From the NCBI RefSeq assembly GCF_048403405.1, contig NZ_CP183129.1: DNA of 64,000 bases. One strand, 5' to 3'. Shown here in pieces: positions 2,790 to 64,000 of this stretch. Source of the DNA: Escherichia coli. Its GTDB lineage: Bacteria > Pseudomonadota > Gammaproteobacteria > Enterobacterales > Enterobacteriaceae. Below the pieces are notes generated by a model that saw nothing but the letters and a program-made list of their open reading frames with translations, was not told the DNA's origin and ran no database searches. A program made the position numbers and the translations under genes. The first letter of the stretch is position 1, and every line of letters begins with the position of its first letter.

Positions 2790-3794
2790 TTAAAGCGGAT
2801 CGACTTTCAGGCAAGAAACGGCGTGTCTGAAACTCCCCTCCAGCACAGGACGTGTTTTGGCACACTCCGGACCGGCAATCGGACAACGGGTACGGAAAAC
2901 ACAACCGGAAGGCGGGTTGATCGGCGACGGTAATTCCCCTTCCAGTAACTGGATGGTTTTGTTCTTCTCCAGATCCGGATCAGGTATGGGAACTGCCGAC
3001 ATCAATGCCCGGGTGTAAGGATGTAGTGGATTGTGGTAGACCTCATCATAGGTCCCCAGTTCTACCGCATGGCCGAGATACATCACCAGCACACGATCGG
3101 AAATGTGTTTTACCACGGCCAGGTCGTGAGCGATAAAAATTAATGACAATCCCATCTCGCGTTGCAGCTGCTGGAGCAAGTTGACCACCTGCGCCTGAAT
3201 TGACACGTCCAGCGCCGACACCGGCTCATCACAGATAATCAGCTTCGGTTCAAGAATAAGAGCACGAGCAATCCCGATACGCTGGCACTGCCCACCAGAG
3301 AACTCATGCGGATAGCGGTTAATCAGGTTAGGCAATAACCCGACTTTCAGCATCATCGCCTTCACGCGCTCGCGAACTTCCTGGCGTGACATTTTCGGAT
3401 GATAAGTACGCAGTGGTTCAGCGATGATCTCGCCGATGGTCATACGCGGGTTAAGCGATGCCAACGGATCCTGGAAAATCATCTGAATATCACTGCGAAC
3501 GGCACGCCATTCATCGGGCTTCATGCCCAGCAACTCTTTACCTAACCAGGCAACATGACCGTCGGTCGCCTTGACCAAACCGATGATGGCGCGAGCAAAG
3601 GTGGACTTACCGCATCCCGATTCCCCTACCACACCTAATGTTTCCCCTTCATACAGACGAAGAGTGACACCATCGACGGCTTTGAGCGTTTTCGGCGGTT
3701 GCCAGAACCACTGTTTGCCATCTTTGATTTCAAAGTGCACTTTCAGATCGGCGATTTCAAGGAGGACTTTTCTTCCTTCAGTTACAGCATTCAT
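2790..3794 (-). CDS. oppF: oligopeptide ABC transporter ATP-binding protein
   Basis: 334 aa; Walker A GESGCGKST, ABC signature LSGGQ; synteny with oppDCBA. Confidence 0.95.
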   Translation of the reverse strand: MNAVTEGRKVLLEIADLKVHFEIKDGKQWFWQPPKTLKAVDGVTLRLYEGETLGVVGESGCGKSTFARAIIGLVKATDGHVAWLGKELLGMKPDEWRAVRSDIQMIFQDPLASLNPRMTIGEIIAEPLRTYHPKMSRQEVRERVKAMMLKVGLLPNLINRYPHEFSGGQCQRIGIARALILEPKLIICDEPVSALDVSIQAQVVNLLQQLQREMGLSLIFIAHDLAVVKHISDRVLVMYLGHAVELGTYDEVYHNPLHPYTRALMSAVPIPDPDLEKNKTIQLLEGELPSPINPPSGCVFRTRCPIAGPECAKTRPVLEGSFRHAVSCLKVDPL

Positions 3795-4804
3795 AACAGT
3801 TCCTCCACCGGTTTAAAGCAAGCACGCAGACGGCCAGGCGTAAACTCTTCCAGCGGCGGTGCGCTACTACAAATTTCCATCGCATGTGGACAACGTGGCT
3901 GGAACGGGCAACCTTTCGGTAATCGCAGCAAGTTTGGCGGATTACCCGGGATGGTCAACATTGTTTCACCTTCCGCATCAAGACGCGGCACCGCGTTGAG
4001 CAAACCGATAGAATAAGGATGAACGGGTTGATAAAAGACATCGCGCGCATTGCCATATTCCATCGTGCGCCCGGCGTACATTACCAGCACTTTGTCGCAG
4101 ATCCCTGCCACCACGCCAAGATCGTGGGTGATCATAATGATGGCGGTATTAAATTCCCGCTTCAGTTCATTTAATAGCGTCATGATCTGTGCCTGTACGG
4201 TGACGTCCAGCGCAGTAGTGGGTTCATCCGCAATCAGCAGCTTAGGTCGACATAGCAATGCCATCGCAATCATGACTCGCTGACGCATGCCGCCAGAAAA
4301 TTCGTGCGGGTACATTTTCATGCGTTTACGCGCTTCCGGCATTTTTACCGCATCGAGCATCCGCACCGACTCTTCAAACGCCTCAGCTTTGCTCATGTTC
4401 TTATGCAGCATCAGCACTTCCATCAACTGCTCACCGACACGCATATAGGGATTCAACGAAGTCATTGGGTCCTGAAAAATCATTGAGATTTGTTCAGCGC
4501 GCAGTTTATTGAGTTCACGCTCTGGCAAATTGAGGATTTCACGCCCATTGAAGGTTGCCGATCCGCCAATACGTCCGTTGGCAGCCAACAGGCCCATCAA
4601 CGCAAATGCAGTTTGCGATTTACCCGAACCAGACTCACCTACAATGCCCAGCGTTTCTCCGGCACGTAGGGAAAAATTCAAATCATTGACCGCCGTGACG
4701 TCGCCGTCCGGGGTACTAAAGGTGACACGCAAATCTTTCACGTTCAGCAGTGCGTCAGCCTGTTGTTGTGCGAGCGGCACAGTTGCAGTTTCAATTACGC
4801 TCAT
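3791..4804 (-). CDS. oppD: oligopeptide ABC transporter ATP-binding protein
   Basis: 337 aa; Walker A GESGSGKSQ, FSGGMRQR signature; 4 nt overlap with oppF. Confidence 0.95.
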   Translation of the reverse strand: MSVIETATVPLAQQQADALLNVKDLRVTFSTPDGDVTAVNDLNFSLRAGETLGIVGESGSGKSQTAFALMGLLAANGRIGGSATFNGREILNLPERELNKLRAEQISMIFQDPMTSLNPYMRVGEQLMEVLMLHKNMSKAEAFEESVRMLDAVKMPEARKRMKMYPHEFSGGMRQRVMIAMALLCRPKLLIADEPTTALDVTVQAQIMTLLNELKREFNTAIIMITHDLGVVAGICDKVLVMYAGRTMEYGNARDVFYQPVHPYSIGLLNAVPRLDAEGETMLTIPGNPPNLLRLPKGCPFQPRCPHAMEICSSAPPLEEFTPGRLRACFKPVEELL

Positions 4805-4815
4805 GGCTGCACTCC

Positions 4816-5724
4816 TTAACGATCTTTCGGGTCGAGGGCATCACGCAAGCCATCGCCGATAAAGTTGAAACAAAACAGCGTCACCACGAGGAATCCCGCT
4901 GGGAACAACAGTAACCATGGAGAGACTTCCATCGAGTTCGCGCCATCACTCAGCAATGCACCCCAGCTGCTTAACGGCTCTTGCGTACCCAACCCCAGGA
5001 AGCTAAGGAAAGATTCAAAGAGGATCATGCTGGGCACCAGAAGTGATGCGTAGACCACCACCACACCGAGTACATTCGGCACAATGTGGCGAATAACAAT
5101 GCCCGACGTCGATACACCGCCAACTTGTGCCGCCTCAATAAACTCCTTGCGCTTCAGACTCAGGGTTTGCCCACGCACAATACGAGCCATATCCAGCCAG
5201 GAAACCATGCCTATCGCCACGAAAATCAGCAGGATGTTTTGACCGAAAAAGGTCACCAGCAAAATGACGAAGAACATGAATGGGAAGGAGTTGAGGATTT
5301 CCAGCAGACGCATCATTACCGAATCCACTTTACCGCCCAGATAACCGGAAAGCGAACCATAAAGTGTCCCGACGACCACAGCCACCAGTGCCGCAGCAAC
5401 ACCGACCATGAGTGAGATACGCCCGCCAATCGCAACGCGTACAAGCAGGTCGCGACCGGATGAGTCAGTACCAAAGTAGTGACCGGACTCCATATCCGGG
5501 GCGCTGGACATCATCGCCCAGTCAGTATCGTCATAGGCAAACTGCGAAAGCATCGGTGCCAGGATTACAAATAACGCGATCAGCACCAGCACTATCAGAC
5601 TGGCAACCGCCGCACGGTTATGCATAAAACGTCGACGTGCGTCCTGCCACAAGCTGCGCCCTTCGACCTCCAGCTTTTCACTGAAATTTTCCAGCGTCTC
5701 GCTGTTTTTCTTACTTAACATCAT
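4816..5724 (-). CDS. oppC: oligopeptide ABC transporter permease
   Basis: 302 aa multi-TM protein of the BPD permease type, synteny. Confidence 0.93.
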   Translation of the reverse strand: MMLSKKNSETLENFSEKLEVEGRSLWQDARRRFMHNRAAVASLIVLVLIALFVILAPMLSQFAYDDTDWAMMSSAPDMESGHYFGTDSSGRDLLVRVAIGGRISLMVGVAAALVAVVVGTLYGSLSGYLGGKVDSVMMRLLEILNSFPFMFFVILLVTFFGQNILLIFVAIGMVSWLDMARIVRGQTLSLKRKEFIEAAQVGGVSTSGIVIRHIVPNVLGVVVVYASLLVPSMILFESFLSFLGLGTQEPLSSWGALLSDGANSMEVSPWLLLFPAGFLVVTLFCFNFIGDGLRDALDPKDR

Positions 5725-5738
5725 CGCGAGCTCCAGTA

Positions 5739-6659
5739 TCAGTAACGGATTTTCGGGTCGATAACCGCATATAGCACATCGACAATGGCATTAAACAAAA
5801 TGGTTAACGCACCAACCAGAATGGTCAGACTTAACACTAAGGAATAGTCACGGTTCAATGCGCCATTAACGAACAATTGCCCAATCCCCGGTAAACCATA
5901 AATGGTTTCGATGACCATAGAACCGGTAATAATGCCGACAAATGCAGGGCCCATATAGGAGAGCACGGGTAACAGAGCTGGTTTTAATGCGTGGCGTAAA
6001 ATGATCCGCCGCATAGGTAACCCTTTCGCCCGGGCAGTACGAATAAAGTTGGAGTGTAAAACCTCAATCATAGAGCCACGGGTAATACGCGCAATACTGG
6101 CGATATAGGCGAGTGACAACGCCACCATCGGCAATATCATGAATTTAAGCGCCCCACCATTCCAGCCACCGCCCGGCAGCCAATGCAAAATGATCGCAAA
6201 TATCATGACTAATAATGGCGCAACCACAAAACTGGGGATAACAACCCCGGTCATTGCCAGCCCCATCACGGTATAGTCCCATTTGGTGTTTTGTTTTAAT
6301 GCGGCAATAACGCCAGCACTAACACCCAGTATTACCGCAAGGAAAAATGCTGCGGCTCCCAGTTTGGCAGAAACGGGAAAACTGGATGCAACCAGGTCGT
6401 TGACCGAATAATCTTTATATTTAAACGATGGACCGAAATCGCCATGCGCCAGTTGTTTCAGGTAGCTGAAATACTGTGTCATGATCGGATCATTTAGATG
6501 ATATTTCGCTTCGATATTGGCCATCACTTCTGGCGGTAAAGTACGTTCGCCGGTAAAAGGGCTTCCCGGCGCGAGGCGCATCATGAAGAACGAAATAGTA
6601 ATAAGAATAAATAGCGTCGGAATCGCTTCCAGACAGCGACGTAGAATAAATTTTAACAT
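5739..6659 (-). CDS. oppB: oligopeptide ABC transporter permease
   Basis: 306 aa multi-TM protein, synteny. Confidence 0.93.
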   Translation of the reverse strand: MLKFILRRCLEAIPTLFILITISFFMMRLAPGSPFTGERTLPPEVMANIEAKYHLNDPIMTQYFSYLKQLAHGDFGPSFKYKDYSVNDLVASSFPVSAKLGAAAFFLAVILGVSAGVIAALKQNTKWDYTVMGLAMTGVVIPSFVVAPLLVMIFAIILHWLPGGGWNGGALKFMILPMVALSLAYIASIARITRGSMIEVLHSNFIRTARAKGLPMRRIILRHALKPALLPVLSYMGPAFVGIITGSMVIETIYGLPGIGQLFVNGALNRDYSLVLSLTILVGALTILFNAIVDVLYAVIDPKIRY

Positions 6660-8376: not shown

Positions 8377-9113
8377 TGTTTTTTGGACTCCCTCATTATA
8401 ATTACTGGTATTAACCAGCATGTGTAATCCCGGATTGGGACCCTGCACAGGCTCGGAGACTTTCTGCTGTCAGGTTACTTTATCGTTACGTATTACTATC
8501 ACCGACTTTATTTATTCTGGTGATTCAGACGATCACCTTATGTCGATTCGTACTGTGTCTCCCCTGTCGAGACACATTATTCTTTCGCGACGCTCTTTAA
8601 TTGTTAATTATTCTCATTACCAATAAAGAATCGTCTGGCGGTTGCCCGGAAAGTACCAAATGCGCTTCTTACTCGCCAATACATTTTGCAAAATTGTTAA
8701 GCAATTCTCTTTTATTGACCGTATCAGAATCTATAGCTTGCATCCATGTCTTAACAAACATCTTTTAATTCAATCAAATAGAGATTGGTTAAGCATGTCT
8801 CTCTTTTCTGATTACAGTTCCAGTAGTGAAATGCACAATAATTTAACAATTGATTATTATTTAGCACTTTCCTCTACCAAAGGCAGTGGAATTACTAATA
8901 TCATTTCAATTATTCTTCAGCAAGCCCAGGATTATGATGTGGCGAAAATAACATGATGGTGAGGAGAAGCAGTTACGGAAATCCTTATAACTAACTGTAA
9001 TTTGAGAAGAATATTTTTACCTATTCCTTTTGCTTTTGATAACTGCACCGGAACAAAGTAAAAATAATGACGAAGTAAACGGAGCATGGCAGCTCCGTTT
9101 CATTTGAAAGGAA

Positions 9114-59604: not shown

Positions 59605-61302
59605 ATGAAATCCCCCGCAGCTTCTCGCCCGCTAAAAATGGCGTTAATTCCAGCCTGCATTTTTTTGTGTTTCGCTGCGCTATCGGTGCAGGCAGAAGAA
59701 ACACCGGTAACGCCACAGCCGCCTGATATTTTATTAGGGCCGCTGTTTAATGATGTGCAAAACGCCAAACTTTTTCCGGACCAAAAAACCTTTGCCGATG
59801 CCGTGCCGAACAGCGATCCGCTGATGATCCTTGCTGATTATCGGATGCAGCAAAACCAGAGCGGATTTGATCTGCGCCATTTCGTTAACGTCAATTTCAC
59901 CCTGCCGAAAGAGGGCGAGAAATATGTTCCGCCAGAGGGGCAATCACTACGCGAACATATTGACGGACTTTGGCCGGTATTAACGCGTTCTACCGAAAAT
60001 ACCGAAAAATGGGATTCTCTGTTACCGCTGCCGGAACCTTATGTCGTGCCGGGCGGACGTTTTCGCGAGGTATATTACTGGGACAGTTACTTCACCATGT
60101 TAGGACTTGCCGAAAGCGGTCACTGGGATAAAGTCGCGGATATGGTGGCCAATTTTGCTCATGAAATAGACACTTACGGTCATATTCCCAACGGCAACCG
60201 CAGTTACTATTTAAGTCGCTCGCAGCCGCCCTTCTTTGCCCTGATGGTAGAGTTACTGGCGCAGCATGAAGGTGATGCCGCGTTGAAGCAATACCTGCCG
60301 CAAATGCAAAAAGAATATGCTTACTGGATGGACGGTGTTGAAAACCTGCAAGCCGGACAACAGGAAAAACGCGTTGTAAAACTTCAGGATGGTACCCTTC
60401 TCAACCGCTACTGGGACGATCGCGATACGCCACGACCAGAGTCATGGGTGGAAGATATTGCCACCGCCAAAAGCAATCCGAATCGACCTGCCACTGAAAT
60501 TTACCGCGACCTGCGCTCTGCCGCTGCGTCTGGCTGGGATTTCAGCTCGCGCTGGATGGACAACCCGCAGCAGTTAAATACCTTACGCACCACCAGCATC
60601 GTACCGGTCGATCTGAACAGCCTGATGTTTAAAATGGAAAAAATCCTCGCCCGCGCCAGCAAAGCTGCCGGAGATAACGCGATGGCAAACCAGTACGAAA
60701 CGCTGGCGAATGCCCGTCAAAAAGGGATCGAAAAATACCTGTGGAACGATCAACAAGGCTGGTATGCCGATTACGACCTGAAAAGTCATAAAGTGCGCAA
60801 TCAGTTAACCGCGGCCGCCCTGTTCCCGCTGTACGTCAATGCGGCAGCGAAAGATCGCGCCAGCAAAATGGCGACGGCGACGAAAACACATCTGCTGCAA
60901 CCAGGCGGCCTGAACACCACGTCGGTGAAAAGTGGGCAACAATGGGATGCGCCAAACGGCTGGGCACCGTTGCAGTGGGTCGCGACAGAAGGGTTACAAA
61001 ACTACGGGCAAAAAGAGGTGGCGATGGACATTAGCTGGCACTTCCTGACCAATGTTCAGCACACCTATGACCGGGAGAAAAAGCTGGTGGAAAAATATGA
61101 TGTCAGCACCACCGGAACAGGGGGCGGCGGTGGCGAATATCCATTACAGGATGGCTTTGGCTGGACCAATGGCGTGACGCTGAAAATGCTGGATTTGATC
61201 TGCCCGAAAGAGCAACCGTGTGACAATGTTCCGGCGACGCGTCCACTCAGTGAATCAACAACACAGCCGCTAAAACAAAAAGAGGCGGAACCTACGCCTT
61301 AA
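59605..61302 (+). CDS. treA: periplasmic trehalase
   Basis: 565 aa from the second Met (MKSPAASRP...), signal peptide, glycoside hydrolase family 37 motifs. Confidence 0.95.
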
Positions 61303-61316
61303 CTTTACTGTATATC

Positions 61317-61360
61317 GAGCAATGCCATTACGTGCATAAAATTGGCATTGCTCTTTCTTC
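61317..61360 (+). terminator. treA intrinsic terminator
   Basis: gagcaatgcca...tggcattgctc stem followed by tttcttc. Confidence 0.6.
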
Positions 61361-61638
61361 ATCACGAAATACCAAATACCACTCTTTCTACGGTCTATGC
61401 CTTTATTTTCTTTTATTAGAGAAGATTTTAATTTTATTTTATCAACTTGTTAATCATTACACCTCTATTTATATTTTCCCCCACTCCCCATTCTCCCTGA
61501 CAATTTTCTTGTGGAACAAAGTGTTATTTAAGAAACAAGCAAATCATTCTGTCTCTTTAGACAAATTTTGACATCAAACATGATCTTTTTCGCTATATGT
61601 GTAAGTATATATCGGTTTTAATTATCAGGATATTACTT

Positions 61639-62661
61639 ATGTCACTAACCAGACGGAGGTTTACACAGATTCTTGCGTCGACATTGTTCCTGCATCATCT
61701 GCCGTCCTTTGCACTATCAGTCAAATTCTGGGCCTCACTGACGCTTCCCGAAGCCCAAAACATTACACGCATCGTCAGCGCAGGCGCGCCCGCCGATTTA
61801 CTATTGCTGGCTGTCGCGCCAGAAAAAATGGTCGGTTTTTCCTCTTTTGATTTTGCCCGTCAGGCATTAATTCCATTGCCAAAGCACATTCGCCAGTTCC
61901 CCAGGCTGGGACGACTCGCCGGGCGCGCCAGCACACTCTCGCTGGAAGGGCTTATGGCGTTACATCCCGATTTGGTCGTTGATTGCGGCAATACGGATGA
62001 AACCTGGATCTCCCAGGCACGGCAGGTTAGCGAACAGACACAAATACCCTGGTTATTGCTTAACGGGAAACTGGAACAATCAGCAGAACAGTTAACAACG
62101 CTTGGCAAAACGTTAGGCGAAGAGCACCGCACCGCAGAACAAGCCAATCTCGCCAGCCGCTTCGTTGGTGAAGCTCAGGCATTCGCCACCTCACCCGCCG
62201 CTAACCTCAGCTTTTATGCTGCGCGCGGTCCTCGAGGGCTGGAAACGGGCTTACAGGGTTCGTTGCATACCGAGGCGGCGGAATTATTAGGTTTGCACAA
62301 CGTCGCGCAAATAGCCGATCGCCACGGTCTGACACAGGTTTCCATGGAAAATCTCCTGCGCTGGCAGCCGGATATTATTCTGGTTCAGGAGGCCGTTACT
62401 GCAGATTTTATTCGTCGTGATCCTCTCTGGCAGGGCGTGAAAGCGGTTGCGGAACAACGCATCTTATTTTTAAGTGGCCTGCCCTTTGGCTGGCTGGATG
62501 CCCCGCCGGGAATCAACCGTCTTCTGGGATTACGCAGACTTCACGCCTGGCTGGATCCCGCCATCAATCGCCAGTTTAAAAGTGACATGCAGCATTACGC
62601 CCAACTGTTCTGGCATTGCCTATTAAGTGACGCCGACTATCAAAAATTGGTGGCGAGCTAA
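61639..62661 (+). CDS. ABC transporter periplasmic substrate-binding protein (iron-siderophore/hemin/B12 class)
   Basis: Start at MSLTRRRFTQILASTL (arginine-rich, Tat-like signal) inside the 354 aa ORF-track entry; composition and operon context of class III binding proteins. Confidence 0.75.
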   Translation: MSLTRRRFTQILASTLFLHHLPSFALSVKFWASLTLPEAQNITRIVSAGAPADLLLLAVAPEKMVGFSSFDFARQALIPLPKHIRQFPRLGRLAGRASTLSLEGLMALHPDLVVDCGNTDETWISQARQVSEQTQIPWLLLNGKLEQSAEQLTTLGKTLGEEHRTAEQANLASRFVGEAQAFATSPAANLSFYAARGPRGLETGLQGSLHTEAAELLGLHNVAQIADRHGLTQVSMENLLRWQPDIILVQEAVTADFIRRDPLWQGVKAVAEQRILFLSGLPFGWLDAPPGINRLLGLRRLHAWLDPAINRQFKSDMQHYAQLFWHCLLSDADYQKLVAS

Positions 62662-63641
62662 TGAGAACCGTAAACGGATGTATTTTGCTGCTGGCAGCTA
62701 TCAGTATCACTTTTGCCGCCGTAAGTGGGGCTTATCATCTCGATATACAGCAACTGCTGGCGCTCATTCTTCGTCAAGAAAATGTTCCTGTGCAGGAACA
62801 AATTGTCTTCTGGCAAATCCGCGTGCCGCGTATTCTTGCTGCGCTGTTTCTGGGCGCGGCGCTGGCAGGGGCCGGAACCACCTATCAGGGAATGTTCCGT
62901 AATCCCTTAGTGTCACCGGATATTTTAGGCGTCTCCGCCGGTGCCGGACTTGGTGCCTGCGCGGCAATCCTGTGGGGATTATCCATTGTTTACATCCAGC
63001 TGTACGCATTTTGCGGCGGGCTGATGGTGGTCGCGGGCGTCTGGTTGATTACGCGTCGGGTGACCCGCCACGATCCGATCTTAACCCTGGTGCTGGTAGG
63101 CATTGCGTTAGGAACGTTGTGCGGAGCGGGGATATCGCTAATAAAAACGCTGGCCGATCCTTACACCCAGTTACCGTCAATTACCTTCTGGTTGCTGGGG
63201 GGGCTGTCCACCGTGACCTTACGCGATCTCTGCTATGCTGCACCGATCATTCTCATAGGCTCCTTGCCCCTGTTTTTTCTCCGCTGGCGTATGAATTTAC
63301 TCACGCTTTCCGACGACGAAGCCCGTTCGCTGGGACTGAACGTGACACGTCTGCGCTTTGGATTAATTGTCTGCGCCACACTAATCACCGCCAGCACGGT
63401 AGCAATAGCGGGCATAATTGGTTGGGTCGGCCTGGTCGTTCCGCACATTGCCCGCTTGTTGACCGGTCATAACCATCAGCAGCTGTTGCCCATGGCAATG
63501 TGTACTGGCGCGATTCTGCTCCTGCTTACCGATACGCTGGCACGCAGCATTGGAACAACAGAAATCCCACTTGGCATTCTGACCGCTTTTGTTGGTGCAC
63601 CGTTTTTCCTGTTTTTGTTGTTACGCGGAGGTCGCCAGTGA
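62661..63641 (+). CDS. ABC transporter permease, FecCD/BtuC family
   Basis: 326 aa multi-TM protein, start overlaps the binding-protein stop. Confidence 0.8.
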   Translation: MRTVNGCILLLAAISITFAAVSGAYHLDIQQLLALILRQENVPVQEQIVFWQIRVPRILAALFLGAALAGAGTTYQGMFRNPLVSPDILGVSAGAGLGACAAILWGLSIVYIQLYAFCGGLMVVAGVWLITRRVTRHDPILTLVLVGIALGTLCGAGISLIKTLADPYTQLPSITFWLLGGLSTVTLRDLCYAAPIILIGSLPLFFLRWRMNLLTLSDDEARSLGLNVTRLRFGLIVCATLITASTVAIAGIIGWVGLVVPHIARLLTGHNHQQLLPMAMCTGAILLLLTDTLARSIGTTEIPLGILTAFVGAPFFLFLLLRGGRQ

Positions 63642-64000
63642 CTTTGCTTGCCGTCCGTCATGCGTCTCTGGGTTACTCCCGCCATCCGGTGCTACGCGAC
63701 GTGTCCTTCACCCTGTCGCAAGGAACAATTTGTTGTCTGTTAGGAGCCAATGGTTGCGGCAAAACCACACTCATGCGCTCCATTCTTGGCGTTATACCGT
63801 TATTAAAAGGCGAGATCTTACTGGATAGCCTCCCTGTGCAGACACTCAGCCATCGCCAGCGCGCGCAGGCTATTGCCTGGGTGCCGCAGGCGCACGACGG
63901 CATTTTTGCTTTTAGTGTGCTGGATATGGTGTTGATGGGCCTGGCCCCCACCATAGGCGCTTTTTCCGTTCCCGGTAAGCAAGAACGCCTGAAAGCAACG
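63638..64000 (+). CDS. ABC transporter ATP-binding protein (5' part; runs off the window end)
   Basis: GTG start overlapping the permease stop; Walker A GANGCGKTT; open to the end of the window. Confidence 0.8.
   Translation, partial: MTLLAVRHASLGYSRHPVLRDVSFTLSQGTICCLLGANGCGKTTLMRSILGVIPLLKGEILLDSLPVQTLSHRQRAQAIAWVPQAHDGIFAFSVLDMVLMGLAPTIGAFSVPGKQERLKAT

Follow-up and report, generated by a model that had tools for sequence, protein, structure and literature searches.

The closest described relative of the system considered here is MolBC-A of Haemophilus influenzae (HI1470/HI1471/HI1472), a low-affinity type II ATP-binding cassette (ABC) importer that imports molybdate and whose binding protein, MolA, binds both molybdate and tungstate (PMC4031551). 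In that organism molB is repressed by molybdate via "an unknown factor" (PMC4031551), and modD (HI1473) adjoins molABC (PMC3928620). We analysed a stretch of 64,000 nucleotides of Escherichia coli DNA (contig NZ_CP183129.1 of assembly GCF_048403405.1; hereafter the window, whose positions serve as coordinates throughout), in which treA is followed by three genes for a type II ABC importer, the last of them cut by the window end at 64000. A sequence-only reading had regarded these genes as a siderophore-, hemin- or B12-type importer that forms a strain-variable insertion. We consider it probable (roughly 70%) that they are instead the first half of a six-gene operon for the ModE-repressed, TonB-dependent acquisition of molybdenum (or tungsten), serving the cell during molybdenum starvation.

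The locus itself is already known and named, and is thus not a new gene cluster. It is O-island 55 / S-loop 83 of O157:H7 (ECs1693-1699, Z1961-Z1966), located between treA and ymgE (PMC1890555). Iron uptake has been proposed as the role of the "prrA-modD-yc73-fepC cluster" (PMC1890555), or at least considered possible (PMC12928451, published in 2026), PrrA being the literature name of the receptor. A sensitive blastn search with modD and the receptor gene against 5426 complete E. coli genomes revealed one locus type, every match having at least 95% identity. Since E. coli has just this one type, the cluster named in the literature is the locus studied here, and the idea of a further, diverged copy in a pathogenicity island of uropathogenic strains, which the wording of the literature had suggested, was rejected.

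The first gene (61639-62661, plus strand; ATG at 61639, TAA at 62659-62661) encodes a periplasmic substrate-binding protein of 340 amino acids with a Peripla_BP_2 fold (PF01497, E 1.1e-15, residues 94-278). The second (62661-63641, plus strand; ATG at 62661 in a TAATG overlap of 1 nt, TGA at 63639-63641) encodes a FecCD-type, i.e. type II, ABC permease of 326 amino acids, and the third (63638-64000, plus strand; GTG at 63638 in a GTGA overlap of 4 nt) comprises the first 121 of 252 codons of an ABC ATPase that runs past the window end, with ABC-type family matches and the Walker A motif GANGCGKT at 63743-63766. All three reading frames are open and the coupled overlaps are intact; the sequence-only reading had listed the same three coupled genes after treA, over 61639-64000, and the same coding sequences with the same overlaps are found in the RefSeq annotation of other strains. 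Its assignment to the FecCD/BtuCD-type importers also holds, as PF01497, a FecCD permease and an ABC ATPase are encoded together, and the further operon genes that it expected beyond the window, including a receptor, are indeed present in strain GTEN_97 (locus L001). There the full operon sits between treA and ymgE, in the order binding protein, permease, ATPase, class I S-adenosylmethionine (SAM) methyltransferase, ModD and TonB-dependent receptor.

Several of these products have their nearest characterised relatives among molybdenum proteins. Among solved structures the permease is closest to H. influenzae MolB (HI1471; E 5.9e-65, 222.8 bits), followed by FhuB (175 bits), HmuU (168 bits) and BtuC (146 bits), and MolC (HI1470) is the best importer-ATPase match of the full-length ATPase orthologue in GTEN_97 (1.2e-35). 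The structure nearest to the binding protein is the uncharacterised 4pag from Sulfurospirillum, after which comes MolA (3psa/3psh) as the closest characterised relative; a profile search finds MolA with E 4.9e-13, over only about 110 residues, and Foldseek, run on an AlphaFold2 model, with E 2.8e-16, template-modelling scores of 0.67/0.70 and 20% identity. In this model (mean predicted local distance difference test score, pLDDT, of 85.8) two lobes are joined by a long helix, and the top Foldseek matches all belong to the Peripla_BP_2 two-lobe class. The binding protein forms a subfamily distinct from MolA, with the motif PFGWLDAPPGINRLLG. The fifth gene encodes ModD (TIGR01334, 502.8 bits vs a cut-off of 178.85), a quinolinate-phosphoribosyltransferase paralogue that keeps the equivalents of R139, K140, H161, R162, E201 and D222 of the Mycobacterium tuberculosis enzyme and carries K and F where that enzyme has R105 and K172, respectively; the active-site roles of these residues are presumably those described in the literature on structure 1QPN. 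The methyltransferase has only weak, sub-threshold matches, also in a search of the Protein Data Bank, the best being to the corrinoid-protein-associated CpaM (3e-11, 43.1 bits vs 180), and an NCBIfam-type scan matched neither the methyltransferase nor the receptor to any specific family.

Upstream of the binding-protein gene we find a predicted ModE operator, CGCTATATg-tgtaag-TATATATCG (61591-61614), that ends 24 nt before the start codon. When scored against the E. coli ModE consensus ATCGNTATATA-N6-TATATANCGAT (maximum 17; quoted in PMC545781) this site reaches 15.5, vs 14.5 for each of the K-12 modA and moaA sites, which are known from experiment, and the next-best sites reach 12.0 in the window and 11.5 in the K-12 treA region; the score is 16.0 in the Shiga-toxin-producing strain STEC799 and in a contig with 99% identity to E. 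coli. In the 64 kb there is a single instance of the pattern TATAT-N7-TAYAT, vs 0.18 expected. The operator 28-mer begins 50 nt before the ATG, the corresponding distances being 45 nt at modA, which is repressed, and 201 nt at moaA, which is activated. An in-frame ATG at 61597, given as the start of the gene by the listing of open reading frames (ORFs), falls within the operator and was rejected, since each of the 15 orthologues in the alignment starts at the Met of 61639. A Shine-Dalgarno sequence, AGGA (61627-61630, plus strand), stands 8 nt ahead of the latter codon and is kept as cAGGA in the upstream alignment. Finally, 17 nt ahead of the ModE box stands a -35-like hexamer, TTGACA (61568-61573, plus strand), with a TTGA core that varies hardly or not at all, and we infer that this hexamer belongs to the operon's promoter.

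The conservation of this operator was examined in 80 loci with relatives of the binding protein, taken from species-representative genomes (about 21 kb each, 1.48 Mb in total). In most loci of Enterobacterales and Shewanella the best site of the entire locus is found 42-60 nt upstream of the binding-protein ATG, and when 18 upstream regions from more than 10 genera were aligned, only the ModE box and a TTGAC(A) motif were conserved, the rest being unalignable. Sites scoring at least 14 were found 40 times in the 300 nt ahead of the binding-protein gene and just 10 times elsewhere in the 1.48 Mb. Eight of these 10 directly precede a linked TonB-receptor gene in gamma-, beta- or alphaproteobacteria, namely in Serratia (L032), two species of Shewanella (L034 and L040, each a perfect 17/17), Caulobacterales (L044), two Hyphomonadaceae (L074 and L075), Lautropia (L050) and a Rhizobiales isolate (L060), and of the other two one precedes modA and one a moeA-like gene. 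The box is thus also found ahead of the receptor gene at loci in which the latter is separated from the genes of the transporter. No strong ModE site stood ahead of any other kind of gene in these loci. Thus, because strong sites precede only these genes, it appears that the transporter and receptor genes both belong to the ModE regulon. Gene neighbourhoods agree: homologues of the binding protein (about 40% identity) stand beside modABC in five alphaproteobacterial loci, and in a locus from Lysobacteraceae the methyltransferase gene is succeeded by a ModE-like one. More than 10 genera have maintained the operator, the reading frames and the order of the six genes; in Shewanella the operon is kept but lacks ModD.

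Three sets of loci in this sample showed peculiarities. In L057 a strong ModE box (4665-4692, 15.5/17) separates a moeA-like gene (4766-6091) from a divergent ORF of 441 amino acids (3337-4662), beside modA and a homologue of the binding protein. In Affinibrenneria salicis two loci on one scaffold (L026 at 146827-167849 and L027 at 907280-928302) have identical coordinates and identities for the six genes, which reflects a genuine duplication or else an artefact of the assembly, and in both the ModE box is unusually far upstream (278 nt). In Rhizobiales (e.g. L042, L052, L056, L064 and L077) the place of the enterobacterial box, some 56-62 nt ahead of the gene for the binding protein, is taken by a distinct yet related palindrome, CGAGATATT-N6-AATATCTCG, which may be a local variant of the molybdenum box.

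The mechanism that we propose would work as follows. When molybdate is ample, molybdate-bound ModE would occupy the palindrome at 61591-61614, which would overlap the predicted promoter or transcription start, and would shut off transcription, just as at modABC; when molybdate is low, ModE would leave and the six-gene operon would be expressed. The receptor (PrrA) would then let a molybdenum species, or tungsten, enter the periplasm, where the binding protein would capture it and dock on the MolB/MolC-like transporter that pumps the cargo into the cytoplasm, and there ModD and the SAM methyltransferase would act on the cargo or handle it.

The binding protein is predicted to reach the periplasm through the twin-arginine translocation (Tat) pathway. 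Its signal peptide (61639-61719, plus strand; cleavage after ...SFALS predicted by the -3/-1 rule) begins MSLTRRRFTQ... and contains T-R-R-R-F-T-Q followed by ILASTLFLHHLPSFA, which fits S/T-R-R-x-F-L-K before a hydrophobic stretch. The sequence-only reading had noticed a Tat-like RRRF signal here and the motif is real, R5 and R6 being invariant across the 15 orthologues in the alignment. An NCBIfam scan of the first 67 residues matched no family and no Tat-signal hidden Markov model, so that the assignment is based on the motif and its conservation; residues 1-26 of the structural model have a pLDDT below 50.

Several observations weigh against a molybdenum importer. Identity between the binding protein and MolA is only about 20%, and no ligand is known for 4pag, the closest structure. 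The affinity of MolA itself for molybdate is weak, at about 100 uM (cited in PMC3928620), which leaves the true substrate of the whole family insecure. The only family matches of the receptor are to generic siderophore and heme subfamilies, the roles of ModD and the methyltransferase are left unexplained by molybdenum import, and the E. coli papers that deal with the cluster label it a putative iron system (PMC1890555, PMC12928451). A promoter consensus scan found no canonical -10 element at 16-18 nt from TTGACA. Finally, a free oxyanion would be an unusual cargo for TonB-dependent receptors and type II importers, which as a rule transport large chelates. The cargo is therefore the weakest point of the proposal, given the weak affinity of MolA, the distance of the binding protein from it, the large size of the usual cargos and the two enzymes without an assigned role, and a molybdenum chelate or tungstate would be possible instead of molybdate. 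The metal-chelate family expected by the sequence-only reading stands in part: the fold of the binding protein is of that kind, but its nearest characterised member binds a bare oxyanion.

In place of free molybdate, the receptor and importer may carry a molybdenum complex, such as a "molybdophore" (for instance a molybdenum-catecholate), a molybdenum chelate from the host or its microbiota, or a salvaged pterin or molybdenum-cofactor-like molecule, whose organic ligand would be stripped or recycled in the cytoplasm by the methyltransferase and by ModD, in which most quinolinate-binding residues are retained. We think of this as a minority possibility, but if it is true, no TonB-dependent pathway for a molybdenum chelate will have been defined earlier, and ModD, which has lacked a function for three decades, will have gained one. 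It is also conceivable that the ModE box is real and that the cargo is not molybdenum at all, being something needed when molybdenum is short, for example vanadate, or that it is mainly tungstate. ModE controls non-transport genes too, and the binding protein is only distant kin of MolA, which in any case binds tungstate as well as molybdate (PMC4031551). On the other hand, the adjacency to modABC and a moeA-like gene, together with ModD, fits the handling of molybdenum more simply. To our knowledge E. coli has no vanadium-dependent or obligately tungsten-dependent enzymes, and we judge a cargo of this kind improbable.

A more conventional explanation is that the operon takes up an iron chelate (a siderophore, ferric citrate or heme) and is induced by iron starvation. 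This is what one would conclude from the RefSeq name of the first gene product ("iron ABC transporter substrate-binding protein"), from its Peripla_BP_2 fold and from the receptor's matches to the TonB-siderophore and TonB-hemin subfamily models (1e-36). However, every iron, heme or siderophore model scores far under its curated cut-off: the binding protein has 31.8 bits vs 320 for the ferric-citrate (FecB-type) model, 22.3 vs 205 for enterobactin and 19.3 vs 298.65 for IsdE, and the receptor 126.7 vs 223.5 and 124.5 vs 316.85. Among characterised permeases MolB comes closest, ahead of FhuB, HmuU and FecCD, and ModD is found within the operon, with homologues adjoining modABC. The ModE operator is the only conserved regulator site upstream, and no Fur box (GATAATGATAATCATTATC) was found within three mismatches anywhere in the 64-kb window. 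The best Fur match in the gap between treA and the binding-protein gene had 6 mismatches out of 19, a value equalled by 115 of 500 shuffles, so the gap lacks a Fur box. Two Fur-like words in the gap, ttgttaatcattac and gcaaatcattct, were considered and rejected, being no better than shuffles and conserved only within Escherichia. Iron uptake is therefore an improbable function for this operon.

Cobalamin, the third option raised by the sequence-only reading, belongs to a broader possibility in which a corrinoid or other organic cofactor is imported and the methyltransferase and ModD remodel it. Here one may point to the BtuB/BtuFCD-like layout of a TonB receptor with a type II importer, to the BtuC model as the top NCBIfam match of the permease (8e-72), to the weak CpaM match of the methyltransferase (3e-11) and to the retention of most quinolinate phosphoribosyltransferase active-site residues in ModD. 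None of the corresponding scores reaches its cut-off (BtuC 242.6 vs 461, BtuB 80 vs 599.7, CpaM 43.1 vs 180 bits); indeed, the permease matches the BtuC, FecD, FecC and FhuB models over their full length and stays below the NCBIfam cut-off with all of them. A search of 61000-64000 against Rfam, at E up to 1, found neither a cobalamin riboswitch nor any other RNA family, and a cofactor importer would leave the conserved ModE operator and the modABC adjacency unexplained. We regard this option as very unlikely. The siderophore, hemin or B12 guess, like the iron label in RefSeq, thus followed from superfamily membership alone, with no Fur box and no riboswitch to go with it, and is not sustained; molybdenum is favoured by the ModE operator, by ModD, by the MolB, MolC and MolA relatives and by the adjacency to modABC.

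How widespread the operon is was assessed by megablast of 61303-64000 against the 5426 complete E. coli genomes. The segment was found in 2148 of them (about 40%), nearly always as a single chromosomal copy, and at least 80% of the query was present at 95% identity or more in 2138. A ycgY segment was found in 3172 genomes (58%), K-12 included, and since the two kinds of carriers cover essentially all genomes, the locus is a two-state polymorphism. In K-12 a 622-bp ycgY segment replaces the 6.7-kb operon, homology stopping exactly at the treA stop codon and returning 24 bp before the stop codon of the receptor gene. The sequence-only reading was accordingly right that K-12 has ycgY and ymgE beside treA and lacks the three genes there, and these frequencies agree with its description of the region as strain-variable. 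The carriers listed include O25b:H4-ST131, the enteroaggregative strain 042 and O157:H7, and a genome comparison from 2026 places the region in extraintestinal-pathogenic and adherent-invasive E. coli (PMC12928451).

The term "insertion", in contrast, was not borne out. In five Citrobacter species the operon directly follows treA and is succeeded by ymgE-ycgR-emtA-ldcA, and genomes labelled Enterobacter, Raoultella or Klebsiella have it after treA and ahead of emtA-ldcA. In Escherichia albertii the order is treA, a ycgY homologue, about 1 kb of AT-rich DNA, the operon and ymgE, an arrangement onto which both E. coli states can be mapped as alternative deletions. Since E. albertii has both ycgY and the operon, and outgroups have the operon after treA, we conclude that the operon is ancestral at this site and that K-12-type strains lost it by deletion. 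A horizontally acquired island was considered and rejected on the basis of the GC profile (0.50-0.55 in the six genes vs 0.51-0.52 in the flanks), the outgroup synteny and the annotation of the flanks, with no integrase, transposase, tRNA or mobility gene annotated at the operon borders. In E. albertii (L008, 8411-10000) the ycgY homologue has 62% identity and lies on the minus strand at 8521-8958, and the additional DNA of about 1 kb (GC 0.38) seems to hold another minus-strand ORF.

One may also ask whether the E. coli locus is a decaying remnant without current function. The operon has been lost from 58% of the complete genomes; IS1 or ISEc35 insertions interrupt it in some carriers (strain 4621, which is match H1, and match H39); an internal deletion in AST85 (L004, 6334-7095; also match H52) has removed everything between the start of the binding-protein gene and the end of that for the receptor, making a third state of the locus; and truncated or fused products occur in the protein database. 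In STEC799 (L002, 8316-10000 and 13103-13915) treA carries a frameshift and the methyltransferase gene an internal stop codon, the remaining operon being intact. Against decay stand the 2138 genomes with well-preserved copies, the gene order, frames and operator kept over more than 10 genera and the open frames of the window, so that a remnant seems to us a far-fetched explanation.

Some of these irregular copies deserve a few more words. Strain 4621 is 100% identical to the window over 61303-64000, yet its operon is interrupted by an insertion sequence. A stop such as that in STEC799 may explain why the table for O157 Sakai places the two hypothetical ORFs ECs1695 and ECs1696 between the genes for ModD and the ATPase (PMC1890555). 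Fusion proteins in the databases join the binding protein to the C-terminal domain of ModD (386 amino acids, 23 contigs), the binding protein to FecCD, or trehalase to the binding protein (the set P0010, P0082, P0095), and suggest recurrent in-frame deletions or frameshifts at the locus. Lastly, a 2.5-kb contig binned as the actinobacterium Collinsella (L006) matches the binding-protein and permease genes of E. coli with 99% identity, ModE box included, and is almost certainly a mis-binned E. coli fragment.

Upstream of the operon, treA (periplasmic trehalase; 59605-61302, plus strand) is a conserved neighbour that lies outside it. TreA of GTEN_97 aligns to 59605-61299 with 98.9% identity (565 amino acids), and RefSeq has treA at the equivalent spot. 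The gene is followed by a hairpin (61317-61353, plus strand) with an 11-bp stem and a 15-nt loop, after which comes CUUUCUUC; it folds at -18.6 kcal/mol (z = -4.4), with none of 200 shuffles folding as well, and looks like a treA terminator that would divide treA from the downstream operon. The gap between treA and the binding-protein gene (61303-61638) is AT-rich, as the sequence-only reading had said, and measures 336 bp, not the 290 bp that it had given; its GC content is 0.37-0.38 in 400-nt windows, and 0.32 in the equivalent gap of GTEN_97. An ORF of 79 amino acids in this gap (61332-61571) overlaps the regulatory region and is probably no gene, since its DNA failed to align with E. albertii.

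Within the literature searched, what appears to be new is the assignment of the cluster to the ModE regulon and to molybdenum, together with the TonB-dependent route for molybdenum that this implies. Papers that name the cluster assume iron, and in the searchable literature we found none that ties it to ModE or molybdenum, a link that a 2003 survey of ModE sites or regulon databases may already record. The same search found no TonB-dependent outer-membrane route for molybdenum, and a 2024 review of the substrates of TonB-dependent transporters is silent on that metal. A molybdenum acquisition operon would thus represent a new substrate class for TonB-dependent transport, and would correct a widespread iron annotation, papers having listed the locus among iron-uptake virulence genes on annotation alone. 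It would also make ModE a candidate for the factor behind molybdate repression of MolBC-A-type transporters, a question left open for H. influenzae (PMC4031551). The operon would moreover be a tractable setting in E. coli for the function of ModD, its predictions being checkable by standard genetics. Molybdoenzyme-dependent anaerobic respiration is said to drive blooms of Enterobacteriaceae in the inflamed gut, and tungstate to have been used to poison that respiration (reportedly by Zhu et al. in Nature in 2018); a second energised entry route for molybdenum or tungsten in some strains could alter their fitness and their sensitivity to tungstate.

How, then, does the operon compare with known systems? 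With the Fur-regulated FecABCDE, FhuACDB, FepA-FepBDGC and Chu/Hmu systems it shares the layout of TonB receptor, Peripla_BP_2 protein, FecCD permease and ATPase, but it has a ModE operator and no Fur box, every equivalog score is far below its cut-off, and ModD and the methyltransferase take the place of siderophore-processing or biosynthesis genes. With K-12 ModABC it shares the operator consensus, a similar distance to the start codon (50 vs 45 nt) and, as predicted, the logic of repression by ModE-molybdate and derepression in molybdenum starvation. However, ModABC is a high-affinity type I importer with a class II binding protein, from an unrelated transporter class, has no gene for an outer-membrane receptor and is core in E. 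coli, whereas the operon is found in about 40% of genomes. The greatest similarity is to MolBC-A: both have a BtuCD-like architecture, the permease and ATPase are nearest to MolB and MolC among characterised importers, modD stands beside the transporter genes in both species, and molybdate repression, reported for H. influenzae (PMC4031551), is predicted for the E. coli operon from its ModE box. The E. coli operon differs in adding a TonB-dependent receptor, a SAM methyltransferase and a twin-arginine signal on its binding protein, itself a member of a separate subfamily with about 20% identity to MolA.

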